The notes beneath the pieces were generated by a model. It saw nothing but the letters and a program-made list of their open reading frames with translations. It ran no database searches and was not told where the DNA came from. This document shows, piece by piece, positions 20,822 to 59,031 of a stretch of DNA of 64,000 nucleotides (positions are counted from its first letter, which is position 1; each line of letters begins with the position of its first letter). Source of the DNA: Paraspadella gotoi (taxonomy: Eukaryota > Animalia > Chaetognatha); contig CM119266.1 in assembly GCA_051294375.1 (NCBI GenBank), forward strand, positions 18,648,087 through 18,712,086. Direction: 5' to 3'. The translations under genes were made by a program, and so were the position numbers.

Positions 20822-22539
20822 TTACTCTTCTTCAAAACTTTTCTTGACTTTTCTGATTGGAAGATTCTTTGCCATTTTATCCAAATTTTTTATTTCATCT
20901 TGATCCATAGTTGTAGTTCCTCCTTTGATTCCCTGTCCCTGTAATGAGTGCACAAAGTTATCAATAATAACCTATTGGTTAATTAAAAAACTGCACATGA
21001 AACCGGATTTAAATTTATTTTTCAACTTAATAAGAAACTTTAAATTACTTTTTACGTTATAATTTGTTTCCTTAACTATTTCACATCGTTTAGTCAAGAA
21101 AACCTATATTTTTTTTTATTTTTGAAGAGTCACAAGCAATTGATACTTGGATTTTGGAAAAACAAAGCTACTGTGGAAACCCTCGTCACAAAGATTTACG
21201 TCGTTGATTTAATTAAATTAATTTTATGTTAACTTAAAAAGTCAGTAACAAAAACAAACGAGATTCTACGTTTCTACAACGCAGGGGCGGCGAGAGAGGG
21301 GAAAACCCTAGCCTCAGGTGGGGGGGGGAAGAAAAAAAACCCGTATAACCTTATCTCTATTGCTGCTCATGGTTAAAAATAAGCGCTAAATTTCATCTAG
21401 TCAGAAGGTTTAACAAATTTAAACCCATCACTCAGACTAGAGGAGAGGCACAATGATTGTGATTAAAAAAAATCAAAAAACAATTCAGTAAAACACCAAT
21501 GCCAGGTTGCAGGTCCTGGAGGCAGAAGTTTGAGCACTGGAGCAATTTCCAAGGCAGAAAGCGAAAACTAAAAACTAAAATTATGGAGAGCGGGGGGGAG
21601 GCCCGGCCAGGGGCCCAGTGCCCGCCATTTCTCTCGCCGCCCCTGCTTCAACGTATTACAAATATTCAAAACAATAATAAACGGGCGATATACAACGATA
21701 CAATGATACCAGATACAACAAGGTTAAAATGTCGTTGATAAAGGCCTTGGCGCTCAATGGTTACCCTCTGTGGGCATACGAAAAGGCTAGGTACCAGCAG
21801 AACCTGGCTGAGGGTAGTGGCCACCAAGGGGCTACCCAAGTAACTGCTGATGCAAGTCCAACCTCCACCCCCCAGAATGAAGGGCAGGACTCTGCTGCCG
21901 AACAGTCTACCGGCCCACCACAGCGCAACTGGAAACTAAGCAGAGGCGTCCTAGGAACGTGGGTTACCTGTCCCTGCCCTACCACCCAAGAGAGATAAAA
22001 TCCCCAGACCGAAAACATCAGGAGCCGTCTATTGGGAGGCCTGTGCGGGGCGGGCAACCAACCCTGACAGCAGCATACGTGGGTGAGACAGGGAGTCTGT
22101 CAGATCGGTTCAGCAGCACACTAAAGAGCCCTACCGTGACTCTCGCAAATACTGGCCATCTGTTCAGAGAAACTGACTGTCTTATGCTGTCCCATGACCG
22201 GAACGGGTTCTCAAGAGGTATTAGAGAGGCGATTTACATCAAAGCCCTCGAGCCGTCTTTGAACCGTGATAGATGACAATTCGATCTCCCTCCAAGCTAT
22301 GATTCGCTTATGCTTAGTGCCTTCTCACCACAGCGCACGATGACTCTCCTGTTCCCACTCAAGCGGTCAGGCGGAGACCTCCCGATACGCAATGGATGCC
22401 CGATGCCTCAGCCTCTCCTGCAGCAACCCTGTCCGACTCTCCTCGGATCGGGCGTCCCCCAAAAAGACGGCTGCAGGAGGAGTCTCTTCCCGTAACAAAA
22501 CTGGCGAGATTAGATTAGCAACTTACCTTCCCCCCCTCT

Positions 22540-22575
<36 letters not shown>

Positions 22576-22582
22576 CTCTCTC

Positions 22583-22616
<34 letters not shown>

Positions 22617-28600: not shown

Positions 28601-29539
28601 AAATGACTTGCCTCCATCACCAATGGCCACTGATGAATGGTTGGTGGATTTTAGTCCACCATACATCCCCCCTCCCATAGGGAGAAGTCTGTTGCTTCTC
28701 TTCAGTGAATTGTTGGTGGAAAGTACGTCGCCAGGTTGAGGCATGTCGCTTGAAAGTGCTGTTGTTGCTGTTGTGTTCAGAAGTTGAGCTCACCAATGAA
28801 GCGACAGTTATGTTATGAATAATGACAGAACCGTTCAATAAAAGCAGGATGTAACACCGTGTTACAGGCGGGTTAATCGCCTCATCCCTCTTAACTGTTA
28901 GGCGACCACAGGGCTAGAACCCCTTTGGGTTGGGAGGCGAATGACTTGCCTCCTGCAGCATTGGCCAATTATGAACGGTTGTTGGATTTTAGTCCACCAT
29001 ACGAGTAATCTGTTTCATCACAAAATTATTTCTTGACTCGCCTCTTCCTATCTTTAAAAAAATTCCATGGATTACTTCAGATTTTAATAAACTTTATAAT
29101 ATATCTATAATTTTTTTTAAAAGTAGGCTCTTGAAGTGACTGAAAGGAAAAGAAATTGCCGTGCCTCTCTGTAAGTACGAATTAAATATGAGATTGCTAA
29201 CTAGTATTCTCTTACCCTGTCCGTGCAATCGCCCAGTCTCTAATTGAATCTTTAGCTTTGTACTGAAGTGTATAGAGGCACCGACTATCTCCCACTGTCA
29301 AGAGAAAATGCTTGGTATTAATTCCGCCATTCGGATCAAGAAAGAGTTAGAACCGAGAATGATTTGATTTTCTCGCAACAATGTAAAAATTAATAACAAA
29401 ATGGTCAGATGCTAAGTCTCGTAAAAAGGTCAAAAANNNNNNNNNNNNNNNNNNNNNNNNNCAGATAACATGCGACGAGTCACGGGTCAACAAGTCAATA
29501 ACAATAAAATAATAGTTAAACTGGAGAGAGAGAGGAGAG

Positions 29540-29602
<63 letters not shown>

Positions 29603-32600
29603 AGAGAGTTTTTGTTTGGCGAATTGATCGTTGTCCACATATCCCCCTACCAAAGAGTTTTTTTTTTTTTTTGTTTTTTTCTGAAATAAAAGAGACAATT
29701 TGACAGTTAAGACGATAAAAAGATAAAACGATTTGAAACAATATGACATTCAAACAATAAATGAGTATTGAGCAAGACTAATTGCACTCATGGCACTAAA
29801 AATAAAAAATAAAATTCAACAATTAAGGAAAATTGGAAATTGGAAAAGTATTAAGTATACCAATGAAAATGTGAGTAAATATTATCATTATGGTTCCTAA
29901 CATTTAAGAATAAGAGGGTTGTTGAATGTGATAGGTTTCGTCGTCGTTGTGTCCTCGTCCTCATCTGGAGATGAAGCATGGATAGTAATACGTTGAGTCA
30001 AATTGGTATTGATGATGGAGGACGGAGGAGTCGGAGGAGGAGTCGGAGGAGGAATCACGAGAGTGACCTTTTTACGAGAGTTAGCGTCTGACCATTTTGT
30101 TATTAATTATTAGGGAACGTCGGAGCTTACCATTTGTGGCAACGATCAAGAAAGAGAACCGGGAATGATTTTTGTTCGGCGAATTGATCGTTGTATAGCA
30201 GATTCCGACTCTATAATCCACTTTGTCGGCCCACCACCCCCAATATTGTCGGGCATTCATTTATATCATGTCAGAACATCGAATTATGATAAATTATGCA
30301 AAAAAAAAAAATGATGTCCGTCTGTCTGTCTGTCCGTCCCCCTCTTAGTAAAAAAACTCTAATTACTAATGATTGGCTGGATGGATTGAGATGAAATTTT
30401 GTGTGCGGGAAGGAAACTGTATGGAATCGTACAGTGTAAATCTGTATAAATGGAAAATGATGATCCTAAATGAAAAATAACAATAAAAATAAATACTTAT
30501 TAAAAATAAAAAAAAAAAAAGATTCGTTTTAATTATTCATCTGATTAGCTGTTAACCGCTAAATTATCGTGGGCAGATCCGACATTGTTTGCTCAAACTT
30601 GTTTTTGTCGCGCAGAACTGTTTTTTCAGTAACTTTTTAAATTATTGACAAACTGAAGCATTTAAATATTTGAAAATACAAAAGAAATTGATATTTTTTA
30701 TTTTCCCAAAACGGTAATTACCATCAAATTATTCGGACATTATTACAATAAAAAATGCTATAATGGAAAGTCACTAAAAGAAAACAGTGGTAAGGCGGCA
30801 GTATAGCATACACTAGGCAACAGATGATTGTTCTGCAACAGATGATTCTTCTGCGACAAAAAACTTTCAAGACCTTTGTTATCTTACGTTTTTCTGCGAG
30901 GAGCGATGCTTTTTTCTTTGCTTTGGCTAAATCTTCTTGCATTTCGTCTTGATTCTTAACTGATAAAGTTAAAGTTACAAGATTACTTGTTTTACCATAT
31001 CTTTAAGGAAAATTGTTTTTATATAGTTATAATTTTAATAAATTAATAAATTTTAACTTATTACAATATATCTTAAGATTTTGACAGTTATATTTCAATA
31101 TCATTTACTTTTAGAATATTTATGAATATTGTAAGGAGTGAAGGATATCGAGGAATTATGCATATTTAAGCGTATGTTAAAAGTAAAAATCCTAAATTTA
31201 ATTTTATTTAAAATTCTAATAGTGAGGAAGACATTGTTTAAACTTTCTTTTCGTTGTGTGATATAATTAGATACATTGTGCAACGTACAACAAAGATAAA
31301 TATTTTTAAAAACTTAATAATTATTATATATATATAAATATTATTAAGTGTTAACAATTAGCTAATAATAAATAATATAAAAAGAAGGAAAAAAATGAAA
31401 TTTTGAAAAAGATACTGTTGGTGAGGGAAATAAGTAAGTGATTTTTGAGCTCTATCTAAATTCTTAAACTTTCACTTTATCACTCACTCAATGTGTCCTT
31501 ACCTTCAGCCTGTCCTCACCTCTGACCACTATTCTTTACTCAACTCTATGTCGGAAATCTTTTTGCCCTCCCTCCCTCTCTCTTTCTCTCTCTCTCCCTC
31601 TCTCTCTCTATCTTCCTGCATATGATTTGCTTATAATTTTCAAAAACCAAATTTAACGATAATGTAAGCCGAAACATGTCCGTTTTTCTTTTTTAAAAAT
31701 AAAAAATCGTTGTTGAAACTCATTATTCAAACCTTTTCTCTAATAGTGAGGAAAGAACAAAATAGCACTTCATGAATATTGAATATTAAAAAATTTTATT
31801 AAGAATTTTAAAATTAACGCTGTAGGCTATAAATCAAAATTTTAAAATGGTTTTTGTAATATTTTTTGCACATTTGGATTGTATAGTATTTCCCGATTTA
31901 ATGCCTAAAGGAGTGGTCTTTTTTTATAATTAAAACATTCTTTGAAACATTATACCAATTCATTGATAGGTAAGCCAGGTACTCTGAGAGTGAGTAAACC
32001 AGACTGTGAGAGAAGCTTGCAGGGACCTGCTATTTCATTATCTTGTAAGAGTAATGGAGGCCTTAAACACCAAAGCCTGTCCAAAGTCAGGGACTTGATA
32101 GCTTATTTATTAAATGAATGGATAATTTTTATATTGATTGTACCAATTTCATAAAATTATTATTCTTTATGAATTAAGGTACAATGATGGACGTTGTTCA
32201 TAATTGACTTTTATAATTTTTATACATTACATATGTATACAACACATCGTTAATAAACTTTCTGTTTGATGCTTCAAATTAGATATACATGATTCTTGTA
32301 GGAAGTCATTTATGAAAATTAAAATATCTAAAAAGTTTAACATAAAGGGTGTGGAATTGACAATTTTGTTTTGGGATTAATAAAGGATATTGAAGAGACC
32401 GTAATTATTTATGCGTTTGTGACAAAACCGTTCAATATAAGCAGTCCCTGATCTTTGGATCAGGCTGTAACACCGTGTTACAGGCTGGTAAAGCGCCCCG
32501 TCCCTCTTGACTGCGAGGCGACTACCGGCGCTAAAACCCTGGACCTTTGGGTTGGGAGGCAAATGACTTGCCTCCTGCACCAATGGCCGTTGCTGAACGT

Positions 32601-33566
32601 TTGCTGGATTTTAGGCCACCATAATATGATTGTTTGCTGTGCCAAAGAATAAGACGACAAGGTAGAATCATAATCTTCTCTCAGAAAGAGAACCGGGAAT
32701 GATTTTTGTTCGGCGAATTGATCGTTGTATAGCAGATTCCGACTCTATAATCCACTTTGTCGGCCCACCACCCCNNNNNNNNNNNNNNNNNNNNNNNNNA
32801 TCCATCCAGCCAATCATAGTAATTAGAGTTTTTTACTAAGAGGGGGACGGACAGACAGACAGACGGACATCATTTTTTTTTTTTTGCATAATTTATCATA
32901 ATTCGATGTTCTGACATGATATAAATGAATGCCCGACAATATTGGGGGTGGTGGGCCGACAAAGTGGATTATAGAGTCGGAATTGCTATACAACGATCAA
33001 TTCGCCGAACAAAAATCATTCCCGGTTCTCTTTCTTGATCGTTGCCACAAATGGTAAGCTCCGACGTTCCCTAATAATTAATAACAAAATGGTCAGACGC
33101 TAACTCTCGTAAAAACGGTCACTCGTGATTCCTCCTCCGACTCCTCCTCCGACTCTCCGTCCTCCATCATCAATACCAAATTGACTCAACGTATTACTAT
33201 CCATGCTTCATCTCCAGATGAGGACGAGGACACAACGACGACGAAACCTATCAACATTCAACAACCCTCTTATTCTTAAATGTTAGGAACCATAATGATA
33301 ATATTTACTCACATTTTCATTGGTATACTTAATACTTTTCCAATTTCCAATTTTCCTTAATTGTTGAATTTTATTTTTTATTTTTAGTGCCATGAGTGCA
33401 ATTAGTCTTGCTCAATACTCATTTATTGTTTGAATGTCATATTGTTTCAAATCGTTTTATCTTTTTATCGTCTTAACTGTCAAATTGTCTCTTTTATTTC
33501 AAAAAAACAAAAAAAAAAAAAAACTCTTGGTAGGGGGATATGTGGACAACGATCAATTCGCCAAAC

Positions 33567-33632
<66 letters not shown>

Positions 33633-36600
33633 CTCTCCTCAGTTTAACTATTATTTTATTGTTATTGACTTGTTACCCGTGACCTCGTCGCATGTTATTT
33701 GACCTTTTTACGAGACTTAGCATCTGACCATTTTGTTATTAATTTTTACATTGTTGCGAGAAAATCAAATCATTCTCGGTTCTAACTCTTTCTTGATCCG
33801 AATGGCGGAATTAATACCAAGCATTTTCTCTTGACAGTGGGAGATAGTCGGTGCCTCTATACACTTCAGTACAAAGCAAAGATTCAATTAGAGACTGGGC
33901 GATTGCACGGACAGGGTAAGAGAATACTAGTTAGCAATCTCATATTTAATTCGTACTTACAGAGAGGCACGGCAATTTCTTTTCCTTTCAGTCACTTCAA
34001 GAGCCTACTTTTAAAAAAAAATTATAGATATAAAGTTTATTAAAATCTGAAGTAATCCATGGAATTTTTTAAAAAGAAGGAAGAGGCGAGTCAAGAAATA
34101 ATTTTGTGATGAAACAAATTACTCGTATGGTGGACTAAAATCCAACAACCGTTCATAATTGGCCAATGCTGCAGGAGGCAAGTCATTCGCCTCCCAACCC
34201 AAAGGGGTTCTAGCCCTGTGGTCGCCTAGCAGTTAAGAGGGATGAGGCGATTAACCCGCCTGTAACACGGTGTTACATCCTGCTTTTATTGAACGGTTCT
34301 GTCATTATTCATAACATAACTGTCGCTTCATTGGTGAGCTCAACTTCTGAACACAACCAAACAACGCACTTTCAAGCGAGCACATGCCTCAACCTGGCGA
34401 CGTACTTTCCACCACAATTCACTGAAGAGAAGCAACAGACTTCTCCCTAGGAGGGGGGATGTATGGTGGACTAAAATCCACCAACCATTCATCAGTGGCC
34501 ATTGGTGATGGAGGCAAGTCATTTGCCTCCCAACCCAAAGGTCCGTTGTTCTAGCCGGTGGTCGCCTAACAGTTAAGAGGGACGGGGCGCTTTTCCCGCC
34601 TGTAACAAGGTGTTACAGCCTGATCCGAAGTCAGGTACTGCTTATATTGAACGGTTCTCTCATTAATTCTTAACAATTATTACTAACTCTTCACTAGCTT
34701 TTTTAGGTGGTTTTGAAAAATGAAATAAAATTTGATTTGCGCAGGATATAATAAATTAGTATTAAGCAATTAGTAGTGGGTTTTACAAGTTTTTTTTTGC
34801 CAAGTTTGAGAGATAAAGATTAAAGAAGGAAAATTAGGCGGTGAAATCTGGAACTTTTGGGTCAAAAAATAACATCAGAATTCAGAAGATTGAATAATGT
34901 GCATATGTGATTATGTTGAAATTATTATTTCATATATTTTAATTTATTACGTCGTGAGTTAGAATCAAATTATTTTTATAACTCCTTTGTGTAGGAGGCT
35001 AACAAAGACAAGCTAAAAAGACTGTTTTGTATTTTATTTCAGAATGTAAAAATCTGATCAATATTTTATTGAGGGTTTGGGAGCTTTTCCCGTCAGTTGC
35101 CTCGCTTTTAAAACGTCGGTTCAACCGGCCCGTCTCTCTAAAGCGAGGACCATTCCGATCAGGGTTAAAACCCGGGACCATTGGGTTCAGAATTTAAGTG
35201 ATAAATCCTTAACCATGCTATTACAGCGCTGATGATAGGACCATTATATCCATTGGATAGTGTATTACGTCATTACAAAAGGATAAATTTATATTAGTTA
35301 TACAAGTTTAAAAAAGAGACGGACAAGCATTTTTCCATTAATTAAATGACAGAAAAGGAAATGCTGTTCAGTGTTAACGAACGTCAGTATAGACTAGCTA
35401 TTTTCTTGCTAAAATTCGAGAAATTCAGAAAATATTTATCCTCATTTATGCAGTTATGGGATGTCGTTTGTGGTGGAAAACTTAAAACCTCTAACTGCTT
35501 ATATGTTCCGGCTTCGCGCTTTCGACCATGAACAGAATATTCATAGTTTGTGGTCAGAAACTTTGTTGGTCGAGACAAAGAGGTCACCATATTCTGTACT
35601 GGACGTACTCCAAAAGATTGCCTTGGATGACCTTAACGTGTGTGGTAATGTTGTGTATTACGTAAATTAACCTTTTTGATAATCGAGACGCCTATTCATT
35701 TCTTTATACATCGAAATGACTTCCATTAACATCTCCTCTGAACCTTCTCTTATTCTGGTGGCCATTGCGTAGCTAAAATAACATCAAAGGCCCGGTTTGC
35801 GTGTTTGGGATCATTGAAGAGGCTGGTTCAAGTCACATTTACTTAAAATTTTTACTTATATTTACTCATAATTATTATATTTATTAAAAATCGGATTGAT
35901 AAATTGAAATGAAAGATGGATATAAATTTTTGATGGGAATCGTAGAAGTTTAAATTAGAAAACCAACAGACACATTTATATTTATTTTTAAAGTTACTCT
36001 CTCTACTTGATTGATTGATTGATTGTTAATTTGGTTAAATGATTGATTAATAATTTTTTAATTGATTAATTGAGAAACCTGTTATGATTTATAATGTTAT
36101 GATCTAGTTATGATTTGTTATGTTTCTCATAATTATAGGGGTTGATTGAAATCATGGATACGGGAGAAGTAAATCCTAATGCGCGAGGATCCAGTAGGAA
36201 TGTCCCCGCTAATGCGTGCTGCGCTCAAGACAAGATCAAGTAAAGACTAAAAATGAGCGAGATAATTATACCACTTCAATGATAGGGAAGACAGGTACTC
36301 TGGAGTTAATAAACTAGACTGTGAGAGAGTCTTAAAAGAAAGCCTGTAGATTCCTGCTTTTTATTACATCTTTTGAGAGGGATTGAGGCTTTAACCCACC
36401 ATATGAAGTCTATTAACATAGGCAAGATAGCTTATTTATTCAATGAATGGATATTGGATAATTAATTTATTCATTTTACCAATTTCAGTTCAATTTTGCG
36501 GAGTAGAATATAGTATTCCTGGATCTAATTTTTTATTTTATTTATTTATTCATTATATTATTCCTTACAACAAATTGTTGAAACAATATGCCATATGCAC

Positions 36601-39600
36601 TCAAAAAGATAATGCATAAATTTTTTTTTTCTAATTCAAAATGTTATATATATTGATTGTATTTATTTCATAAGTAATAAAGAGAGTTATAGAGAAGGAA
36701 TCTGCTGTTAGCAAATGCGGCTAAAAAGACATTATCCCGTCTTCTAATGAATAATAATAAACTTGTTTCCTAGAATTATGCAGGCGTTAATGAGACGAGG
36801 TGCTGACCCAAACTTTCAGTCTCGGGAACAAGAAAGAACTGCAATGATGGTTGCCTGTTATTCTGGACAATTAAAGGCCTTAAAGTGTTTGCGTCTTTTC
36901 GAGGCTTCTTATGAATTGTTAGAAACTCGGTTTCTTTTTTTTACTCAAGAACCTATTATTTGATATTAACCTTTCTTGGGCTAAAGCTACGACTCCTCCC
37001 ACCTTTACGCTATTCATTGGGCAGTAGATAGTGGAAATACGGAATTAATGGAGTACATGCTTGGTGATGGGGCCAATCCAGAGGCATTGGACAACCAGGG
37101 ATGGTCTCCATTCACAGGTTGCTGTTGAGCGTTATGCACTCTTTTTAGTCGGATCTGCTTATCAGCAGATCCCGACTCTATAATTCACTTTGTCGGTCCG
37201 TCGGTCCGCCCCCTCAATCTTGTCGGCATTCACTTATATCATGTCAGAACATCGAATTATGATAAATTATGCCAAAAAAAAAATGATGTCCGTCCGTCCG
37301 TCTGTCTGTATGTTCGTCCCACCTTAGCAAAAACACCAATTACTCGTGATTGGATGGATGGATTTGAATGAAATTTTGTGTGTGGGTAGGGAAGTGTGTG
37401 ATTAAGCTGGATATCAAGTTTTGATGGAATCGTCCGAGTGAAAATTAGTTTAAATGGAAAAAAAAATCACTATTTGAACACCAATTACTCATGAGTGGAT
37501 GGGGCTATTGACTTGAAATTTTGTATGTGGGTAGAAAACTGTGTGATTAAGCTGTAATCAAGTTTCAATGGAATCATTTGAGTGGAAATGAGTTTAAATG
37601 GAACAAAACAAAAAACATGTTTCACTAATTGATTATGCTTTTTTCTTTTTATATTAAATGTAAATGCATTAATCAGTTAATTAATAAATAAGTCTATTAA
37701 TTAATAAATAATTAATTAATCAGTCAATTAATTAATAAAAGAAACATTTTGGATCAAAATAAATAATTAATTGCTTAATTAATTAAATAATTAACTTGAA
37801 TTAATTAATTATAAATTAATTATTAATTAATAAATTACCGATAATGATCGTGGGCAGATCCGACATTGTTTGCTCAAACCTGTTTTTTCAGTATTTAAAA
37901 GAACTTTGTCGGAATAATCGGAGCATTTATACTTTAGAAGAAATGTAGTAGTAGTTACTAGTTAAGGCACTGATAAGTATTTATCATCATATACAAAAAA
38001 TATATTAGAATGCGAATAAAAACAAAAATTGCAATATATTTATATAAAAATTTTTTTGAAATTTTAAAGATTTTTATTTACAATGGAAATGTTTATTTTA
38101 AAGATTACAAACAAGTAATTTTATTTTGAAAAATAGTCATGTTTTTTCTTTGATGAAAGAGAGACAGACATAGAGAGAGGGAAAGAGAGAGATAGAGAGA
38201 GAAAGAAAGGTTCTTGCTGGCGGCATTTATAAACTAACAAGTCTGAACATTGAACAGTGAACAGTGAACAAACCATGTCGGATCGACTAAGGGTAATTTA
38301 GGCGGTAATTATCAGATGCAGAGGCAGATGCAGAGGCCTGCTTTGTCATTATCTTGTAAGAGTGATGAAGGCCTTAAACCACCAAAGCCTGTCCAAAGTC
38401 AGGGTCAAAATAGCTTATTTATTAAATGAAAGGATAATTTTTATATCGGTTGTACCAATTTAATAATAATAATAATAATAATAATCATGTTTAAAAATGT
38501 TTAAAAAAATTTTAATTCATTTTAAGATTTCAATAAAGGAAATAAGTTTTGTGGTGGTTACGGTTGGTATGTAAGTTTGTAGTAGACATTGTGTATTAAA
38601 AAATTATCTGCCTTATATCGGTTTCTAAAAACTCCTGATTTTTCTTGAAACCGCAGAGATATTCATAATTAAAATGGAATCAATGGCTTTAATTTTTTGT
38701 GAAAAGGATTTAAAAAGCTGGATATTTTAATTGGACAGGTGTGCGCTCGTAGGCGTTCGGACAGAAGGAATAGCCGAAGTTCTCATTCGTTATGGAGCAA
38801 AGATAGACCGTGTGGACAAAGACCTGAAAGACACCTTTAATGCTAGCCACAATTTCTAACAAGGGCCTTATCGCTCAGGTATTTTAAAGTGCGACATTGC
38901 TGATTTTTGACTTATCTTTGTAACAAGTTTGACCTACGATCATTACGGTAATTATTTAATTAAACAATTAATAAATGATAATAATTATCTTCATATCCTT
39001 CAAACTTGTTGGTTTTTAGTCTTTTTGTCAGTTAAATGACCACGATAAAAGCAACGACGACCTGATGGCGATGACGACTATAACACTGACTATGATTGAT
39101 TATATTAATTAATGTAGTTTGCATTTACATTCAATTTAAAAAAGAAAAATAGCATATTTAAATAGTAAAACAGGTTTTTTTTGTTTTTTTCTATTTAAAC
39201 TTATTTCTACTACGGACGATTCCATCAAAAATTCTCAATCACACACTTTCCTACAAAATTTGAAGTCAATCACCTGATAAACTCATGAGTAATTGGCGCT
39301 CAAAGCGAGACAGACGGACTCCCTAAAGTACCTGGCTTCCCTAACAATGAAGTGGTATAATATTTAAAAGAATGTTTCAAATGCATGAAAAGACCATTCC
39401 CTTTAAGTATTAGATCGGGGAATACTATATTGAACTCCGTCCAGCATAAAAATACAAGGAGCTGAATTTTAATGGAATTGGTACAACCAATATATGAATT
39501 ATCTATTTATTTAATTAGTAAGCTATCTTGCCCCTGACATTGGACAGGCTTTGCTGGTTTAAGGCCTCCATCACTCTTAAAAGATAATGAACATAGCAGG

Positions 39601-40485
39601 TCCCTGCAAGCTTTCAATCAAGACTCTCACAGTCTCGTTTATTAACTCTCTAAGTCCAAAACAATGAAAGGAAAGGCTCATCGGGCGTGAAAGGAGGAGG
39701 AGGAGGATCGAAGGACGAGGTCTCCTCTGAAAAAAGGAGCCAGGCAGATATTTTTAAACTAATTTCTTTCTTATTTATTTATTTACTATGAACAAAACTG
39801 GTTTGAAAAAAATAAAGTAAGATTTAAAAATTTTATTATGAGTACAAAATTATTTCTAAAAGATTTATTTATATACTAATCTAACAAATTAAACACGGTA
39901 TTAAAATCAGACATCACGTTCATTTGATTTTAAAATAAATTATTTTTCATGCTTAGAGGCTCTTAACTTATCTTTTTTTTAAGACGCTCATTAATAGAGG
40001 AGCGGATGTGATGGTACCCAACAAAGAGGGACGTTCAGTCTACGACTTGGCGCGCGCCCTGGAACGACGTGGAATCGTCATGCTGTTGGAAGAATACCGC
40101 AAAGCCAACGAAAAAGAGTTGTCCGAACTTCAAGTATATACTACATGTATATGTTTATGTATATATATATATGTAAATATATATGTACATATTAATGCAA
40201 GTTGAAAAAATTGTACAAGCTAAAAAATTATGTAAGTTGAAAAAATTATACAAGTGAAACAGTTTAAAATAATACATTAAACAAAGTAAACTAAAAAGAA
40301 TAAACAAAACATTTAAATATTTTTTTCAATAAAATATTTTGAAATTCTAAGTTGAGTTTGAAATTAAAGACGAAGTCTTTTAAAAACAACGATTAAAAAA
40401 GATTTTAAACAGACATGTTTCGGCTTTAATGCAAGCCTTCATCAGCGCTTTCACAATTTCAGTTTTTGGATTTTCAATAACATTT

Positions 40486-40561
<76 letters not shown>

Positions 40562-43500
40562 AAGAGAGAGAGAGAGAGAGGGGGGGGAAGGTAAGTTGCT
40601 AATCTAATCTCGCCAAGTTTTGTTACGGGAGTTAGAGACTCCTCCTGCAGCCGTCTTTTTGGGGGACGCCCGATCCGAGGAGATCGGACAGGGTTGCTGC
40701 AGGAGAGGCTGAGGCATGGGCATCCATTGCGTATCGGGAGGTCTCCGCCGGACCCGTTGAGTGGGAACAGGAGAGTCATCGTGCGCTGTGGTGGAGAAGG
40801 GCACTAAGGCATAAGCGAATCATAGCTTGGAGGGAGATCGAATTGTCATCTATCACGTTCAAAGACGGCTCGAGGGCTTTGATGTAAATCGCCTCTCTAT
40901 ACTCTTGAGAAGCGTTCGGGTCATGGGACAGCATATGACAGTCAGTTTCTCTCTGAAACAGATGGCCAGTATTTGCGGAGGTCACGGTAGGGCTTTTTGT
41001 GCTGCTGGAACCGATCTGACAGACTTCCCTGTCTCACCCACGTATGCTGCTGTAGCTAGGGTTGTTTGCCCGCCCGGCACAGGCCCGCCAATAGACGGCT
41101 CCTGATGTTTTTCGGTCTGGGGATTTTATCTCTCTTGGGTGGTAGGGGAGGGGGAGGTAACCCACGTTCCTAGGACGCCTCTGCTTAGTTTCCAGTTGCG
41201 CTGTGGTGGGCGTGTAGGCTGTTCGGACAGCAAGGTCCTGCCCTTCCTTCTGTGGTAGGGCGGTTGAAATTAACAAAATTTAAAAAATCTAAACTAGGTC
41301 ACTAGTATTTTGGTGTAATACGGTCTGCAGATTTAAATGTGATATTGAATATGTTTCCTACATAACATCTTCTTTGTCGAATTTTTTGATTTTTTAAGAC
41401 AATCAAAATGCACGCGATTTTATATTTTTACAAAAATTAATAATAAATGAGTTTTTTTAAATAAAATAACAATTTTTAAAGTAAAATTTATTTTTGAAAC
41501 AACCCAGGATATAAAGGAAACTGGTTCTATTTAATAAACACCAAATAACAAATAATGAAATCAACAGCATTTCAAGAATCAGCTTTATTGTCAAGGTTTG
41601 GGACAGAGCTTTAACGTGCATGGCAACGAGCAAAAACATAACGCATCGCGTCTCTCTTTCTCCGAAAACTTTGAAATGACGCAACAGTAACCTCTTTAAC
41701 TAACCTTTCCACACTTTGGGATGTGGCAGGGTATGTGACCTATTTCAAAGGTTTGTTTAAAAAACATATGAAGTTCTGTTTTGAAAAACATCTGCGGTAA
41801 GGATTGGTCAGAAAAAGCTTTTCCAATCGATCATTTCTGGAGATTTTTTGCAGACCAAATTTAGGCGAGGAACGGGCGAAAACTCTCGTAAATAACTTTT
41901 GTCCCCAACTCACTATTTCCGCGTATCTCACAAATTTTCTTCACCGCAAACTCTCTCTCGGCGCATCCGAACTAGACAAGAAGAGTGAGTAAAACTATTT
42001 CTGGATGAGGGTGCCAAGCTGCCGTCATAATTCGTTTTTTCAACAACAGCTTCGTATCTCATTAGGCAATTTCACGAAACAAAATTTCATTTTCTTTAAA
42101 AACGTGATGGGGACCCATTCAAAAGAGATGGGTTACATTTGATTGAGACCACATTGGGTAGTACAAGAGGATAATGTTGGGTTACAATCATTTCTAGATC
42201 CTTTTTAAACTTGGCTTTGAAAAACTTGATTTTTACTGACAAAGAGGCGAAGAAACGGTTTGTGCTGTTGTCAGCCACCGTGAGTGACTGATGGGTCCCA
42301 GGCTTGAGACTTAAGCAGATTGTTCGTCGACGGTTTTCCCATTATCATCCTCACCATGCGATAACATAGTGTGGTCGTAGCTGAAGATCATTGACGACAG
42401 CGTCGGAAGTATGAGGAAATTAAGAGCGTTGGGAATTGAAGATTCGTTGAAGTCGGGGTTGAACTTCCAGTCTTCCAAACGAACCTTTCCAATTGCTTTA
42501 CCAGGATCACCTGAAAATTTAAAAATATTGTAGCAATAATTCAAAAAGTTCACAGCATTCCTAACAAAAATAACTTTTCACGCTATTAGTCCCTAAGGTT
42601 GGCGTTTGAATCAATTTCACAAGGAGAGAGAGAGAGAGAGAGTGGAAAGAAATACATGTATAAGTTTGGATCATGAGAAGTGGGTATAAAAAATTTTAGT
42701 ATCAAATGACAGATAATATTTTTTATAACTCCATATGCATTATTTTAGAGATGGTTGGAATATTTCGTTCCTCATTGAATAATGATGCGAAGGGGCAATT
42801 CGTTCGTGAGATGAAATTTTGTGTGCGGGAAGGAAACTGTATGGAATAAATGGAATAAATGTATAAATGGAAAATGATGATCCTAAATGAAAAATAACAA
42901 TAAAAAATAAATACTTATTAAAAATAAAATTAAAAAAAAAAAAGAATCGTTATAATTATTCATCTGATTAGCTGTTAACCGCTAAATTATCGTGGGCAGA
43001 TCCGACATTGTTTGCTCAAACTTGTTTTTGTCGCGCAGAACTGTTTTTTCAGTAACTTTTTAAATTATTGACAAACTGAAGCATTTAAATATTTGAAAAT
43101 ACAAAAGAAATTGATATTTTTTATTTTCCCAAAACGGTAATTACCATCAAATTATTCGGACATTATTACAGTAAAAAATGCTATAATGGAGAGTCACTAA
43201 AAGAAAACAGTGGTAAGGCGGCAGTATAGCATACACTAGGCAACAGATGATTGTTCTGCAACAGATGATTCTTCTGCGACAAAAAACTTTCAAGACCTTT
43301 GTTATCTTACGTTTTTCTGCGAGGAGCGATGCTTTTTTCTTTGCTTTGGCTAAATCTTCTTGCATTTCGTCTTGATTCTTAACTGATAAAGTTAAAGTTA
43401 CAAGATTACTTGTTTTACCATATCTTTAAGGAAAATTGTTTTTATATAGTTATAATTTTAATAAATTAATAAATTTTAACTTATTACAATATATCTTAAG

Positions 43501-46500
43501 ATTTTGACAGTTATATTTCAATATCATTTACTTTTAGAATATTTATGAATATTGTAAGGAGTGAAGGATATCGAGGAATTATGCATATTTAAGCGTATGT
43601 TAAAAGTAAAAATCCTAAATTTAATTTTATTTAAAATTCTAATAGTGAGGAAGACATTGTTATAAACTTTCTTTTCGTTGTGTGATATAATTAGATACAT
43701 TGTGCAACGTACAACAAAGATAAATATTTTTAAAAACTTAATAATTATTATATATATATAAATATTATTAAGTGTTAACAATTAGCTAATAATAAATAAA
43801 TATGAAAATGAAGGAAAAAAATGAAATTTGAAAAAGATACTGTTGGTGAGGGATAGATAAGTAAGTGATTTTTGAGCTCTATCTAAATTCTTAAACTTTC
43901 ACTTTATCACTCACTCAATGTGTCCTTACCTTCAGCCTGTCCTCACCTCTGACCACTATTCTTTACTCAACTCTATGTCGGAAATCTTTTTGCCCTCCCT
44001 CCCTCTCTCTTTCTCTCTCTCTCCCTCTCTCTCTCTATCTTCTTGCATATGATTTGCTTATAATTTTCAAAACCAAATTTAACGATAATGTAAGCCGAAA
44101 CATGTCCGTTTTTCTTTTTAAAAATAAAAATCGTTGTTGAAACTCATTATTCAAACCTTTTCTCTAATAGTGAGGAAAGAACAAAATAGCACTCATGAAT
44201 ATTGATATATAAAAAAATTTTATTAAGAATTTTAAAATTAACGCTGTAGGCTATAAATGTCAAAATTTTAAAATGGTTTTTGTAATATTTTTTGCACATT
44301 TGGATTTGTATAGTATTTCCCGATTTAATGCCTAAAGGAGTGGTCTTTTTTTATAATTAAAACATTCTTTGAAACATTATACCAATTCATTGATAGGTAA
44401 GCCAGGTACTCTGAGAGTGAGTAAACCAGACTGTGAGAGAAACTTGATTGAAAGCTTGCAGGGACCTGCTATTTCATTATCTTGTAAGAGTAATGGAGGC
44501 CTTAAACCACCAAAGCCTGTCCAAAGTCAGGGACTTGATAGCTTATTTATTAAATGAATGGATAATTTTTATATTGATTGTACCAATTTCATAAAATTAT
44601 TATTCTTTATGAATTAAGGTACAATGATGGTACGTTGTTCATAATTGACTTTTATAATTTTTATACATTACATATGTATACAACACATCGTTAATAAACT
44701 TTCTGTTTGATGCTTCAAATTAGATATACATGATTCTTGTTAGGAAGTCATTTATTGAAAATTAAAATATCTAAAAAGTTTAACATAAAGGGTGTGGAAT
44801 TGACAATTTGTTTTGGGATTAATAAAGGATATTGAAGAGACCGTAATTATTATGCGTTTGTGACAAAACCGTTCAATATAAGCAGTCCCTGATCTTTGGA
44901 TCAGGCTGTAACACCGTGTTACAGGCTGGTAAAGCGCCCCGTCCCTCTTGACTGCGAGGCGACTACCGGGCTAAAACCCTGGACCTTTGGTTGGGAGGCA
45001 AATGACTTGCCTCCTGCACCAATGGCCGTTGCTGAACGTTTGCTGGATTTTAGGCCACCATAATATGATTGTTTGCTGTGCCAAAGAATAAGACGACAAG
45101 GTAGAATCATATCTTGTTAGAGGGATACATAGTTACATATTAGGGAAAGTAATTTCTCTCGAACTTGTTATTCATTGTCTAAAAATCATCCTAACTGCGT
45201 TTCTTCGTAAGGTTACCAATTAATTCATAATCGGAATGTAATCACCTGCTTCCTCTGAAGATTCCTCCTCCTCAAATTCGTACCATTGAATTTCTATGCT
45301 AAAATGAGTGACTTTAATAACTTGCAGCCTTGGACACAGGATATCGCCCACCACCGATTCTTGCTGATAAAATTCTTTCATATAATTTTGGGTAAAGATT
45401 TGACAAGTTTCATAAGATACAGGACTCTGACCAAATAGTTTTTATATAATAATTTAATAATTAATAATTTTTTAATTAAAAATCAGGTTGGAAGTTAAGG
45501 TTAAGGATAAGGTCATTGATGAGGCTAGTGATTAAGGTTAGGGATTAGGTTAATGATTATGTTATGGTTATGGATTAAGGTGAGGCATTAGTAATTAAGG
45601 TTAAAATTTAGCCATAAGGGTTTAGGGTCAAATTTCAAAATTAAATTAGGGTTTGAAATAAGTCTTGAGGTTTAAATTTAAAAATGTTTGGGTAAAATAT
45701 TAACGTTAAAATTAAATTCTGGGATAAAGCTACAGATATAAAGCGCCTGCACTAAAGCCAAAAATTCAGCCTACAAAAAAGTTTATAAAGAGATAACCAA
45801 TACCAGATTTTCATAAAATCAAGATTAGATCATTAATGCTTCAGTACCAAAAATGACTTTACAAGAAAAATGTCATTGTAACAATCCTGCCTCTTATGCT
45901 TACTGTAATATACAATAAGGCGCAGATCAAAATTTTAATAGTTGATCATGAATAGTCTTGTTCTAAAGAACAATATATATTTTTTTTATTAATTTCTTAA
46001 TTTTCGTAGTAGCCCATTTTTATACCATTAAAGATTAAATTTTTTTTCAGTTTTGAGAGCAGAATCGAATTGCTCAAAAAAAGTTAGTATAAGAATATGA
46101 AATTGGTACAACCAATATAACAATTACCCATTCATTTAATAAATTAGCTATCTTGCACCTGACTATGGACACTGGATAGGCTTTGGTGGTTTAAGGCCTC
46201 CATCACCCTTACAAGATAATGACATAAAAGGTCCCTAAAAGCTTTCAATCAAGACTCTTACAGTATCTTACACTCCCATTCTTAAAGAATTTGAGTTCAA
46301 CAGTAAGACAAAGGAACATTCAAAATAAACTTTATCTGCACCCACTAAATCTTCACTTGATCCTGCTCTTTAACCAAATAGCAATTATTTTTTTAAATTT
46401 TTAGTATCTTAAATCTTTTAAAAATTATTTTTTTGTTATTTTTTAACAAATATTTTTTATTCTATTTCTTATTTTAAGTATTTTTAATCTATATCATATA

Positions 46501-49500
46501 TCAAAACAAAAATGATTTATAAAATATTTTTACAAGTACAAAAATGTTATTAGTGCTGAAGTAACAGTTCAGTTTAAGCCCTTGAAAGTGATTTATTGTA
46601 TGTAATTATCCAGTTTTTGGTTAGGAAAAATTATTGTGAATGTTACATTATGTTTATTTTGACATACTCAAGATTTTTGTAGAATGGGAATAATTGACAG
46701 TGATGATAATGATTTCATAAAAAACGATGTAGAAAATGATTGGGAGGAAATTTTGTTTTAATAGACGCTCATTAAGTTGAGCTTGAGGAAACTGCTAAAT
46801 ATTATAAATTTAATATGCAGCTTATGATGTTGGATGCAGAGAATATTTATTACTGTTAAAACTATTTTCCAGCTGACTGCAACTCGATGTATTGTCAATA
46901 TAAATGACTTTTATAAAACCATCTGCATAACCATAAAATTCTTTCAATTAAAACCCTTAAAATCTGATATAATTGTTTTATTTTGAAAATAAAGACATCA
47001 TATAAAACTGCAAGAATTTCTGAATCCAATGAATACAGTAAATGCATTATTTAAAACTTTACCAATTACTGCATTGATTTGTAAAGTAACAGTACGCTTG
47101 AGACACTCTGTAATTAATGCGAAATATTAAGTCTTAATCAAAAATTCTTTTATTAAGTTAGCTAAAAATTTATTTTTTATGAAAATTTAGTCATAGGTTA
47201 ATCATAACAGTTGTTTTAGGATTTTGACCACATTTTTAAATTTTGACATCATTTGACATTATGAAAGTACTACTGGGCTACTGCAAAAATTAAAAAAGAA
47301 AAAATAATTTTTTTGTTTAAAAATGTTTACAGGTACAACCCAGTTCATGATCAAGTATTTGAATTTTGATTCTATGATTTTAAAAGTTTTGCTACGCTTT
47401 AATATACAATAAGTCTTAAAAGGCAAAGTAAAACATTTTATAATTATCTTCAAGTATAACTAGTAATAATTAACTTCATTAAATCCTTAGCAACTTTTTG
47501 AAATTTTATATATTAAGCTAAGTATATCCAATAAAATTATACGTTCAAGTGATAACCGGATATGATGCAGCTGTTGATTTTCTATCTTTTCGTGATGACT
47601 TCTTAGACTTGCTCTCTAAAATTTCATTCAAAGAATTAATTAAGTAAAATAAAAATTCTAAAACACCAAAAATTCTGAAAATCAGCATTCTAAGATTAAT
47701 GAATGAATACCATGGTTTTATTAAAAGTTCCTGTAAAACATTTTGTCAAATTTTGCAATTTAATCAGCAAGTTAAAATTTTTTTGTTTTGTTTTTTTCTT
47801 TATTTAAATGAGCCGTCTTTTAGCTAATTATGATTAAAAATGTATGTGTGACGTGAAACTAAAAGAAAAATTTTAAACATACAAAGAGATCCACGGGTAG
47901 CGATCTCAAATAAATGGTTGCAGCGCCCATACGTGCTATCTGTTGTTCATGATCAAGATTTAATTAGTTAAAAAAGTCTTGTTAATGTTTTGGGTACTTA
48001 TCCTATAAAACTTTTTCATTTCAAATTTTGCGCAGTAAAAACTGATTTTTCAAAACATAAAAAATCTAGTTTTTGATGAATTCTTTAAAACCGACTTCAA
48101 CTTGACTTACACCACTCTTTGCTAGTTTTAATATCTACAATGGCTAAGATGTTAGAAAACTAAAAGCCAGCTAGTAAATAAATTGCAATAAGCAAGGTTT
48201 ACTTTGAATAGCGGAAAGTTAAGGATAAAGCTCAAAAGCTCAATCTCAGAAAATTTGAAAATCGAAAAACTTTAAAATGCTACTGGGTCACTCAAAAAAA
48301 ATAAACATGACTTTTGAATATTTAGCAATATTGATGAAAACTTTATTCAAATTAGTTAATGAGCTGTTAAATTTCTTTTGGGAAGACTAAAGATAGAACC
48401 CTATAACTTATGGGAAAAATATAATTCAGGATCACCTTTATCTTTCTCTTCTTCGGCATTTAAAACTTCCCCCGACAAAACTGTGTCTGAATAAGTAAGT
48501 ATAAAAAACATAAACCAACTATTAAAAAGTTTTTTTCTTTTAAATATAATAACAACGCTTACGTTTTGATTGAGCCATTGACGTTATTGACTGTAGGAAA
48601 AAAATAACAAAATAACAAATGAGGACGGATAATAATTCTCGCGATTATTTCAAATCCGTTCTAATTCCTCCTAAAAGTTATGAAAAATATGTCGTCAGAA
48701 ATAAACAGTTTAGACTTATTAAATCTACAGTAAGGAAAATGCCACAAAAGCCAGCCCCGGTACCCTTGAAGAGTTAACAAGCAGTCCCTGAGCTTCGGAT
48801 CAGGCTGTAACACCGTGTGACAGGCGGGTTAAGCGCCCCGTCCCTCTTAAATGCTAAGCGACCACCGGGCTAGAACCCCGGACCTTTGGGTTGGGAGGCG
48901 AATGACTGGCGAATGAATGGCCGCTGATGAAAAAATAAAATGAAATAATCATAATGATATATAAAATATATATTATATAATTATATACATTCTTTTACAC
49001 AACTTTTAATTTAAAAATTTTGAATTTTCTAACCGCGCGTGCTTTCTCATCTTTACTCTTGACTTGCCGCTTGTGCTTTTTGGAAATTCCTTCATCACGA
49101 TGACGATGTTTTTTTAAAACCCCCACAATCGGTGTCCGGTTACCTGGCAAAAAAGTGTGTTGTACAAAGGGCCTTCAACCCTATCGGAGAGACAGAATAA
49201 CTTATAAATTAATGAATAAACCGTTCATACATTAGTAGTCGATGAGTATCGGATCAGGTTATAACGCCATGCGACAGGTGGGTTAAGCGCCCTTTACTTA
49301 AAGTGTGTCTAAAATTTAGAAATGTTTATAGCTTATTTGGCATCCTGCACAATTGACTTAGGCATAATAAGGTCTTTTGCCCAAATCTCATTGAATTTCG
49401 TTGAACACACTTAGCTCAACTATGAAAGGACTTTTGGATCCACTATGGATAGATGTCACAGATGCTAATTGATAATATAAATGGCCAAAGTAAAAAATAT

Positions 49501-51272: not shown

Positions 51273-51423
51273 GCTTGAAAGCAGGCGTGAGGTTTTTCCA
51301 TGCCCCCAAGACGGTTTACGGCCGTAATCACGCTTCCCGGTACCTATTGGTCATGAGCTTATCGTATTACTCAATGAGCCACCGGGTCACGATTAAAGGT
51401 GAACTTGTCGCATGGCCCGACTA
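51273..51423 (-). mobile_element. Repeat family C second copy
   Basis: Minus strand ...GTGACCCGGTGGCTCATTGAGTAA...CTCATGA...GGTACCGGG AAG CGT GA TTA CGGCCG TAA ACC GT C...G CCTGC T TTC AA GC. Confidence 0.6.
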
Positions 51424-55400: not shown

Positions 55401-57158
55401 ATATTTTTAATTAATAATAGGAAGTCCATATTTATGATCCATCTAAGGTTCTTTGACGGATCTTCAAAGTGGGACCGGTACTCACAACAGTTTTTCTGAA
55501 CACCCTTTACAAGTATCTCAACAGCAATCACAATTATCGGCTGTGCAATCTCATCTCAATTTTCAAAGGTAATTATCCTTTCTATCTATGAAATTGGTAT
55601 AATGAATATATTTACAGATTTTCCCCTTTTCACTATTGTGATCAGTCAATTTTTTCCGGAAATCTGTTCATCTCTGATGCGGACGTCTTCGCAGTCGAAG
55701 ATCCCGTTTCAGCTCCGAGACGGTTTTTTTCCTTTGGGAAGCCATGACATGGAGAGTTCTAGTGGCCGTAGCGCCTTTGTTTCCTCCACCAGTTCCAACA
55801 AAGGTGCCGAAGGTTTTAATGGCAATCTCCTCTCATCGTCTTCAACTGAATCTTCTCCAGCAAAAGTAAGTCTGGAAACTTCAAATATGAGAAGGTATAT
55901 ATTTAACTCTGCCCAAAAGGCAATACTCTTAATTCCGACCAAATTAAAATGTTCCTTATAGGATTAGCATTAAACATTTAGTAAATGTTTTATCGTTCTT
56001 AGCGATGAGAAATCCAGTTTTCTGAACAACTCACAAGTTTAACAGTCTTGTAATATCTGCAAGGAAAATCCAGTTGGTGGATTTTAGTCCACCATACTTT
56101 CCAAATTATTAATATATGACAATATGCTAATAAACGAAAACGATTTTTTTTGGTTTGGACAACAATTTATTTAAATGATAAAATATTTACGGACATGTTT
56201 CATACATGTGTCGTCACGCGACCATCCAGAACGACGGTCACGCGATCAGAAAAAAGTGGCTTATTCATATATTATTTGGTCATTTTGCGTAAAACCTAAC
56301 ATCGAAGTAATAAACCTTATTCTTCTTGTGCATATGTTTCTCGTGATCACGTGATAATCAGAAAATGCATCCACAAAAGAAATTTATATTATGACATGTC
56401 ACTTTATTTTATTTAGGATGAAAAACGGAGCAATAACGAAGATTGCATCGATGATACTGACCACAGTCACCGCTTAAGACTCGGCTTTGGCAGTCTGGAT
56501 TCTACGGGTGCATTAGGTGGAAGTGCTGGATTAACTTCATTGGGAGGCAGTACAGATGTTGATGCGCTCAGTGGGGATATTGAAAGATTTTCACGTAAAG
56601 TGTTTGTTGGCGGTCTTCCGCCGGACATTGATGAGGACGAGATTACAGCCAGCTTTAGGCGTTTTGGTCCGCTGGTTGTTGACTGGCCCCATAAGGCAGA
56701 ATCAAAATCGTACTTCCCACCTAAGGTAAGCTTTAAATTCTACATCATTGACTATTAATATGATTGAACTGTAGTACAGTCAACACTTTCCCAGAAGCAA
56801 AATTTTTGTAAGTATTTTTCTTATCAGGGTTACGCTTTTCTTCTGTTTCAAAACGAGGCTTCTGTTGGGTTCCTGATCGATGCTTGCCTAATTGATGGAG
56901 ATAAGTTATATTTTTATGTTTCCAGGTGAGTTTTAGTAGACTTTAGTTGTATTAAATAGAAAAATTTGATAATGTCAATGACTGAGTTTGGGCGTTTTTA
57001 CGAGGAAAAGTTTATGAGTTTCGCAGCGAGTACTTAACCTTTTTGTAACCTTTGTGGTTCGTTGTCAGTTATAATTCATTTTTCTTGTTTTTTTTTTTAC
57101 TTCGCAAAAAGCAAATCGTTAATGATTAAATATTTAATGCTTTCATTTTCTTCTATTT

Positions 57159-57254
<96 letters not shown>

Positions 57255-59031
57255 TTTTTACAACAATTGAATAGTTCAACAATAATTCGTTTAGTTTTAT
57301 AACAATGGTTTGCTATTACAATTGTCTTTGGAATATTATTATGATAATCAAATGGTTTATTTTAATATTAATATGTTATTTAAGTCATTAAATTGTAATA
57401 TGCGAAACATATAATTAAAAATAAAGGAATAACAATACATTTAGTAGTACAACAACGGAATATTTTTATATTTTCTTTTATATTATTATATAAAGAAGTT
57501 CTTGTTGGTTAAGAATTTCGCCCAGGCGAAATTCTCCCCTCCTGGAGAGACCGTAAAAGCGTCAAGGATAATACTTCTCTACGTTTGGTTTATATATACA
57601 TATACATATCCAGTAAAGCGTGTGGCGAACGGTCGCTAAACGCCAGAACGGAAATGGATGGCGTCGATTTCGCCACGTGGGTCTTCGTCTCTGACTCCGA
57701 TTGTTTAGTTTGAATAATTAAAATTGTTTCCCAGAACTGTATTTTGTTCATTAATAAAAACAGTGTCTGAATTGCCATAATTTAAAATTATATTTTTTGT
57801 TTTTTTAAGCCCTACGATCAAGCACAAACCCGTCCAAATTCGTCCCTGGAATCTGGGTGATTCGGATTTTGTGATGGATGGATCTTCGCCCCTTGACCCG
57901 CGGAAGACTATTTTTGTTGGAGGCGTTCCTCGTCCACTCAGAGCTCTTGAACTTGCTATGATAATGGACCGACTATACGGAGGAGTTTGTTATGCAGGTT
58001 GGTCTTTCAAAATATGGTTCTTTGTATTACATCCGTATTTTGTCTTGCACGTGAGAAGTTTTTATCTTTTTTTTAGTTTAGCTTTTTAATTATGATTTTA
58101 TTAATTTTATTTTCTAGTAGTAAATTTTTTTTAAAAATTAGCTAAATGTTAGTTCGGGAAATCTGGTGTGCAGTATATATGATGTCAAAAGGAGAAAAAA
58201 TTTAGAGTTGCTAAACAAATAAAAAACGAAATGAAATTGACATAAGAAAACGTTAAGAAGATTTTTAACTAAGGATATTTTTGTAAATTATCTGATTAAA
58301 TATTTATGTTATGATATATATTTCTTTTTAGTCGTTTGGGGTTTGACAATGAGTATTTATTATTTTTCATAGCTGTTTTGGAATCATAATGTTTGTTATT
58401 AATCAAATAATCTAAAACTCCTCATCAAGCTCCTTGAATTGAACAACCAAAATAGCGCACAACCAATCTTTTAGGCATCGACACAGATCCTGAGCTTAAA
58501 TATCCAAAGGGTGCCGGCCGTGTAGCGTTTTCAAACCAACAAAGTTACATCGCCGCTATCTCGGCGCGATTTGTACAACTACAGCACGGGGATATTGATA
58601 AAAGGGTGGAGGTCAAGCCGTACGTACTGGATGATCAGATGTGCGATGAATGCGCAGGCACGCGCTGTGCAGGTTAGATATAAAAAATAAAATTTCTTAA
58701 TTAAAACAAAATTCTTTATATAATTGTAATAACATATTACATTTTTACTGGACTGTGAGAGAGTTTTGATGGCGAGATCACAATATTTTTAGATAGATTT
58801 ACAAGCCTTTCAAATAATTTATTCTTGAAATTTTTATATTAAATTTATAATTCATTTGTATTAAATTCAGGCAAGTTTGCTCCCTTTTTTTGCGCTAACG
58901 TAACCTGCCTCCAGTACTACTGCGAGTACTGCTGGGTCACCATCCACTCCCGTGCTGGTAGACAGTTTCATAAACCTCTTGTGAAGGAGCGCGCCGATCG
59001 GCCACGCACCGTTCCCTTTCGTTGGTCATAG
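52442..59031 (+). CDS. CPEB2/3/4 (orb2): Cytoplasmic polyadenylation element-binding protein, CPEB2-4/Orb2 subfamily, about 531 aa
   Basis: Exons 52442-52459, 52532-52638, 54910-55085, 55448-55568, 55646-55865, 56417-56725, 56828-56925, 57810-57997, 58475-58672, 58871-59031, all in phase. RRM1 [51 protein letters not shown]; RRM2 [14 protein letters not shown]...[10 protein letters not shown]; ZZ domain CDEC...[17 protein letters not shown]. Confidence 0.95.
57155..57252. repeat. (TTTC)n microsatellite in a CPEB intron
   Basis: Perfect tetranucleotide run. Confidence 0.95.

Follow-up and report, generated by a model that had tools for sequence, protein, structure and literature searches.

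PMC10085705 gives the forms of the twister ribozyme as P1, P3 and P5 only. Twisters that lack the P1 stem were reported to cleave at a nearly wild-type rate (review PMC5408937), and in a large screen P1 imperfections occurred without loss of cleavage, while short stems and bulges were tolerated in P2 (PMC11662667). Cleavage without P1 was termed inefficient in PMC8501958. In animals, Perere-3/RTE retrotransposons carry twister T-variants at their 5' end (PMC8501958; PMC7761336). In a different ribozyme class, the dimeric hammerheads, the helix adjacent to the cleavage site is reduced to about one base pair and a palindromic loop, and the retroelements that carry them form tandems (PMC4209133, PMC7229834). 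Axolotl hammerheads, with 1 bp and a palindromic tetraloop, cut much better in dimeric constructs (PMC7229834); those of Penelope-like elements (PLEs) cleaved poorly even when dimeric (PMC4209133, PMC6765202). For Naiads, a group of PLEs, canonical hammerheads are reported as lacking in PMC8557442, where twisters go unmentioned. In the literature that we searched, which lies outside subscription journals, natural twisters that are dimeric or have a palindromic P1, Naiad twisters and tRNA-headed twister elements were not found in print.

We analysed 64,000 nt of DNA from Paraspadella gotoi (hereafter, the window), which is A+T-rich, microsatellite-rich animal DNA. It contains exons of an RRM_7 protein at 56417-58089 (+), presumably CPEB/Orb2-like on the basis of its motifs, and a tRNA-Leu(AAG) gene at 8023-8105 (-). 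A nested 49/199-nt repeat at 19559-20018 carries GGGTTA (telomere-like) motifs. The window also includes N gaps at 29437-29461 and 32775-32799, a direct duplication (30.5-32.7 versus 42.9-45.1 kb) and a near-perfect inverted duplication (~22900-30200 versus ~33000-40200), the arms of which differ mainly in small indels and which may be a fold-back assembly artefact. Because of these inverted and direct segmental duplications, many apparent twister copies are one locus seen twice, and duplicates were collapsed before counting, leaving 16 independent twister loci.

Only one of these loci, at 48778-48856 (-), retains an intact core; core defects were seen in the other 15 of 16. A descriptor, a parse of its elements and covariation all assigned it to the type-P5 (permuted) twister fold, and we refer to the repeat family to which it belongs as family A. 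Read along the minus strand from 48856 to 48778, the elements are P5, AAG, AGG, G-A, CGG, GGCGCT, TAA, CCC, GC, P3, P4 and P5', an order that matches the type-P5 twister. Within this, 48841-48829 consists of the L1' A, T1' (CGG), the linker, U-1 (48831) and two A residues. The G-A-CGG segment at 48838-48842 comprises G 48842, which we take to be the general base, a conserved A and the T1' strand, which pairs with CCG in L4. The 5' strand of P2 (CCC) and T2 (GC) occupy 48824-48828, and the 3' strand of P2, G-[A bulge]-G-G, lies at 48843-48846. The P3 hairpin (48805-48823) is missing in a second family, family B. P4 (48787-48804) has 5 bp, CCTGA / TCAGG, with the loop TCCGAAGC at 48799-48792. 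The U-A-A of L1 at 48829-48831 was assigned by homology to the twister L1 (PMC8501958), and the cleavage position is predicted to be 48831/48830 (U/A).

At this locus, both pseudoknots, T1 and T2, were entirely Watson-Crick, and the conserved nucleotides of L1 (N-A-A; G-A) and L4 (U...AA) were present both here and as the contig majority. P2 was formed, and P4 was a covarying stem of 4-5 bp. An intramolecular P1, a stem of the twister consensus that is reportedly dispensable, was not seen, as the 6-nt linker allows at most 1 bp plus a tetraloop. Contigs of four runs retained the letters of 48778-48856 at every core position, and in family A the contig majorities showed no damage to G-A, TAA, T1 or T2. 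When the linker length was left free, the descriptor gave 24 matches in the window, mostly A+T-rich chance matches; only two were free of defects, this locus and one chance match made of A+T only.

To compare families, we used an alignment of 10 rows, namely three of family A, five of family B, one of family C and one metagenome match (L015, described below). In this alignment, 84.7% of cells paired, as compared to 31-48% in slid controls, and 14 of the 20 named pairs changed on both sides, although these counts are not probabilities, because the rows are related and relatedness inflates them. T1 was CGG/CCG in family A, TGG/CCA in B and GGA/TCC in C, and T2 was GC/GC in A and AC/GT in B. Both pseudoknots, P2, P4 and P5 covaried between families. 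A and B stand as real repeat families, well supported and with covarying T1/T2.

General-purpose models did not detect this fold. The Rfam models returned no twister at threshold in the whole window or in three short stretches, and the twister models gave no match at the family A locus 48778-48856. The best Twister-P5 (RF02684) score, 24.9 bits against a gathering threshold of 37.6, fell on one family B copy and was mis-registered. A covariance model trained on our own loci found three additional weak matches in the window (E 0.018-0.4); the one of these that was inspected, at 41700-41754, had no twister core. Minimum-energy folds lacked the twister P2 and did not stand out from those of shuffled sequences (z -0.15 to -0.81). 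Pseudoknots lie outside that folding model, and because the fold is a double pseudoknot, such folding is uninformative here.

An earlier sequence-only reading of this DNA held that P2 has three positions, the third often a C-A mismatch. The three positions were borne out on the 5' strand. The mismatch is better read as part of a 3-bp stem with a bulge, as the third C pairs not with the adjacent base but with the G beyond it (G-C in 9/10 rows), and the skipped base, which is A, C or G, forms a one-base bulge. The inner pair covaries between G-C and U-A. P2 is thus 3 bp plus a bulge, below the usual 4.

In place of the P1 hairpin, the intact copy carries the self-complementary linker GGCGCT at 48832-48837 (-). 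The same reading described this linker as always 6 nt long, always self-complementary, specific to each family (GGCGCT in A, AGGCCT in B, CGGCCG in C and GCCGGT in D) and too short for a hairpin. The length held in every locus parsed. Self-complementarity was less than universal, being found in 12/16 independent loci (A 4/5, B 6/8, C 1/2, D 1/1), a count to be read with the caveat that many loci were initially detected by the linker motif itself. For comparison, 5.4% of all 6-mers in the window, and 4.4% of those with at least four G+C, are self-complementary. The family-specific linkers of A and B are well supported, and those of C and D weakly so. As for the hairpin, three pairs cannot form within one linker, but a single closing pair with a tetraloop can; it was predicted to be unstable, at +4.9 kcal/mol for GGCGCT (range +3.0 to +5.3). 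The predicted self-duplex, in contrast, was -8.3 kcal/mol for GGCGCT, with a range of -8.3 to -10.7 for A-D.

All three pair positions of the linker changed on both sides in the 10-row alignment, with 29/30 cells paired, and this includes the central pair, which is impossible inside one strand. When the letters of the four family linkers were pooled and shuffled, all four were palindromic in 0.04% of trials, and when they were permuted within each linker, in 0.9%. For the A and B linkers alone, the corresponding values were 0.023 and 0.053; for A-D plus L015, they were 4.5e-6 and 0.001. GGCGCT formed the majority letters at 48832-48837 in contigs of 4/4 runs, and among the linker variants listed there was only 48835 G>A, at 0.2-6%. 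This conservation is not evidence of selection, because family A is homogeneous.

Family A is a very high-copy, short non-coding element with a tRNA-like head, a twister and a tandem unit of ~343 nt. Its head lies directly upstream of the twister (48857-48924, minus strand) and is likely an internal Pol III promoter. The Rfam tRNA model matched it full-length with 14.4 bits (E 2.1), which is sub-threshold (gathering score 29); the heads at 44932 and of the second family C copy gave no Rfam tRNA match. A B-box-like motif was present in the A, D and second C heads and not in B. Relaxed ARAGORN made 306 matches in the window and was discarded as a test of these heads. The A head can be aligned with the D head, and the families may have a common origin.

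A partial family A tandem in which both twisters are decayed lies at 28430-29002 (-), duplicated at ~34125-34675 (+). Its two U-1 positions, 28875 and 28532, are 343 nt apart, and it is the only two-twister pair among the independent loci (2/16 loci). At this tandem, the contig majority restored GGCGCT at 28877 (98% in run X1) and TAA at 28530-31; the broken family A copies reflect individual decay. Other members are a solo copy with a decayed core at 44879-45062 (-), duplicated at 32438-32623, and a 5'-truncated fragment at 49234-49292 (-) that begins at the palindrome. Summed contig depth, which measures the abundance of a family and not its copy number, was ~0.3-1.2 million over the family A head and twister and ~0.17-0.21 million over the spacer, as compared to a flank depth of 36 in run X1. 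We made no use of a peak in depth immediately 3' to the predicted cleavage site, given that summed depth is no copy number. The contig comparison covered families A and D. In run X1, 87 contigs stopped at one sharp 5' edge (28663) with unrelated flanks, which indicates that many genomic family A copies are solo. A small hairpin-like motif at 28645-28663 (-) lies at this edge, ~33 nt upstream of the tRNA-like head; its length is similar to that of the 30-40-bp terminal extension of Naiad insertions.

The family B element at 44308-44602 (+) has its twister at 44478-44541 and the linker AGGCCT. Other family B twisters were located at 23521+, 38350+, 46148-, 36367+, 4319+, 5304- and 17080-, plus duplicates. 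BLAST showed that the copy at 23453-23786 (+), of ~330 nt, is circularly permuted relative to 44308-44602, with the order head, twister, tail, body. Together with the 343-nt tandem and with tail-to-body joints of family A in run X2 contigs, this permuted copy points to a tandem or circular history. Non-coding units of 150-450 nt with tandem or permuted copies are retrozyme- or SINE-like, and many of the copies here are solo.

Families C and D are sparser. Family C comprises two decayed copies (51318- and 17489+). One, at 51273-51401 (-), has the linker CGGCCG and decayed T1' and P4; the other, at 17376-17545 (+), has a tRNA-like head, a decayed twister and the linker CGACCG. The palindrome CGGCCG is found only in the first, and a recognisable P4/L4 only in the second. 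Family D, at 27885-28030 (+) and duplicated around 35123 (-), consists of a tRNA-like head and the 5' half of a twister with the linker GCCGGT. It is a single locus (27998+ = 35123-), and it counts as weak evidence because TGA replaces TAA, P4/L4 is missing and the contig depth of the twister half, ~85, is only ~2x the flank depth of 36.

Five hammerhead-core pattern matches were found in the window. None formed a hammerhead inside the A-D elements; one begins at the edge of a family A head and extends into the flank. A decayed Penelope-like remnant is present at 21680-22730 (+) and 40212-41266 (-), with a GIY-YIG-like peptide recognised by eye and no Pfam family match among its ORFs. It ends in a minimal hammerhead with the palindromic stem III ACATGT, the core of which is intact at ~40400-40445 (-) and damaged in the copy at 22.7 kb.

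We also searched for similar folds outside the window. A pattern with free linker letters gave 47 metagenome matches, among which L015 (381-450, minus strand) was the only one with a full palindrome, CAATTG, and also the only one with an all-Watson-Crick core, including T1. Its P4 is 6 bp long, it has a P5, and its P2 is CCC/AGG as in family A; its predicted linker duplex is weak (-3.0 kcal/mol), and no tandem, long ORF or likeness to the window was seen in its contig. Another metagenome match, L032, passed a loose structure filter by way of G-U pairs, and its linker is non-palindromic. A near-identical short-linker pattern gave five viral matches and 54 matches in prokaryote genomes, none of which passed the structure filter; two of the 54 were palindromic. 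One of these two, in a bacterial MAG (L084:101-152, minus strand), had T1, P2 and the palindrome CCGCGG without a clear P4, and is possibly a chance match. In five of five canonical phage P5 twisters (L001-L005, from IMG/VR contigs), the linkers are 17-30 nt long and form hairpins, the longest, of 30 nt by eye, being that of L003.

Among the Naiad consensi supplied with PMC8557442, P5-like twister cores were parsed by eye in four (near parts 8, 10, 11 and 22 of the supplement). In each, the segment that separates T1' from the cleavage site contains two self-complementary stretches, and the palindromes include GACGCGTC, GGGCCC, GGGTACCC and GGCGCC. Three nematode Naiad ends in the same supplement carry hammerhead-like cores instead. 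This check was made by targeted motif searches rather than by scanning all 54 consensi systematically, and the majority of the matching passages was unrelated coding sequence. A Naiad ORF was not found in the 64-kb window, so the link to Naiads is by motif only.

The sequence-only reading had also proposed that two tandem twister units pair through the palindrome, so that multimers are cut while single copies or circles are spared. Pairing between copies is the simplest account of these linkers, because the 6-mer varies from family to family while all three of its pairs are retained. We lean slightly towards a model in which the palindrome of one copy pairs with that of a second copy to rebuild P1, as in dimeric hammerheads, and so aids cleavage; we expect cleavage to be helped by such pairing, not to depend on it strictly. 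A strict dimer requirement seems doubtful to us, because twisters can cleave in the absence of P1 and solo copies are numerous. The sparing of single copies or circles is likewise unsupported, given that P1-less twisters cut, that tandems are few and that many copies stand alone. In such a model, the tRNA-like head of an upstream unit would drive transcription into the next unit, a parallel to the Schistosoma hammerhead SINE. Two twisters, on the same or on separate transcripts, would then swap P1 strands to form a 6-bp duplex, which might speed folding or U/A cutting. Cuts at successive twisters would free unit-length RNA, and this RNA could be circularised and reverse-transcribed in trans by a Penelope-like, possibly Naiad, element.

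Alternatively, the ribozyme could be a naturally P1-less "mini-twister", able to cut in monomeric form, with the palindrome joining two RNAs for a purpose other than gating cleavage, such as template pairing or switching in reverse transcription, or co-packaging. The monomer may cut well, because P1 is dispensable in tested twisters: cleavage without it was almost wild-type in rate (PMC5408937), and imperfections of P1, P2 and the bulge were tolerated (PMC11662667). The many solo genomic copies are consistent with this, as is the presence of two palindromes in Naiad linkers (PMC8557442), where P1 needs only one. However, in all families the palindrome takes precisely the place of P1, immediately 5' to the predicted cleavage site, and the P1-less construct had free ends, whereas here a 6-nt tether joins T1' to U-1. 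We regard a monomeric ribozyme of this kind as rather unlikely, though as the likeliest of the alternatives.

If the linker instead formed one closing pair and a tetraloop in a monomeric ribozyme, its palindromy could be ancestral or could have arisen by chance in a small G+C-rich sample. Linkers that differ at every position with palindromy kept argue against this, as do L015 and the four Naiad examples, which come from outside the P. gotoi genome, and the low shuffle values obtained once L015 is added to A-D. We consider inheritance or chance improbable, even though only A and B are well supported, with shuffle values for these two that are far less extreme, and 2/54 structure-less prokaryote matches are palindromic by chance. 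A twister-derived fold that no longer cuts itself, and either needs proteins or serves as a structural or DNA-level signal for a mobilising enzyme, would fit the failure of the Rfam twister models to find it, the core defects in 15/16 loci and the poor cleavage of PLE hammerheads even as dimers (PMC4209133, PMC6765202). Set against the intact G-A, TAA, T1 and T2 of the family A contig majorities and the covariation of both pseudoknots between families, a non-cutting fold appears very improbable. Beyond the preferred reading, pairing between copies to rebuild P1, lies the broader proposal that, throughout Penelope-related retroelements and the tRNA-headed elements that ride on them, twisters independently evolved the dimer switch known from hammerheads, with P1 formed solely by two copies together, such that multimers are cut and unit circles spared; we hold this only tentatively, and on balance doubt it.

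If pairing between copies is correct, two unrelated ribozyme classes would have converged, in retroelements of one kind, on a shared regulatory device, the palindromic half-helix. Were the obligate-dimer reading true, the elements would hold the first obligate-dimer twisters from nature and be the first retrozymes of twister type. Animal ribozyme counts are likely too low, because Rfam misses a twister form that is very abundant in this genome. The findings bear on a point left open in PMC8557442, how Naiads spread without canonical hammerheads, and a twister that senses copy number would serve RNA circularisation tools.

With respect to fold, the locus resembles the type-P5 twister (RF02684, clan CL00120) in ending in P5, in its G-A plus T1', UAA and T2, and in a P4 with the U-NNN-AA-GY loop, here as in phage examples. 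It differs from that type, which has a hairpin P1 of at least 6 bp, in that P1 is a 6-nt palindrome and P2 is 3 bp plus a bulge. The palindromic, reduced cleavage-site helix is shared with dimeric type I hammerheads of Penelope-like elements and amphibian retrozymes (PMC4209133, PMC7229834), for which the palindromic-dimer precedent cited by the sequence-only reading is documented (also PMC6765202). The two ribozyme classes are nevertheless unrelated, and dimer dependence is not automatic for twisters, because P1 is dispensable in tested ones whereas hammerheads need helix III.

With respect to the element, the family A layout resembles that of non-LTR retrozymes (PMC7229834). Similar to the Schistosoma hammerhead SINE (PMC6765202), it has a promoter-like head directly 5' of the ribozyme and tandem units, such that an upstream head would transcribe the following unit; in contrast to that SINE, the fold is a twister and the Pol III promoter is predicted from sequence. 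With the four Naiad consensi (PMC8557442) it shares a P5-like twister core and a palindromic linker, as parsed by eye, but Naiads are autonomous and have longer, two-palindrome linkers, whereas the elements described here are non-coding and have one palindrome. Like the Perere-3/RTE T-variants, it is an animal retroelement twister in which P1 is missing or poor. Those variants, however, are type P1, lie at the 5' end, lost P1 by insertion and have a 4-bp P2, whereas the present twister is type P5, internal to a non-coding element, and has P1 replaced by a conserved palindrome. To the known twisters at the 5' ends of RTE-type animal elements, our results add a non-coding, tRNA-headed, single-palindrome form with a short P2.
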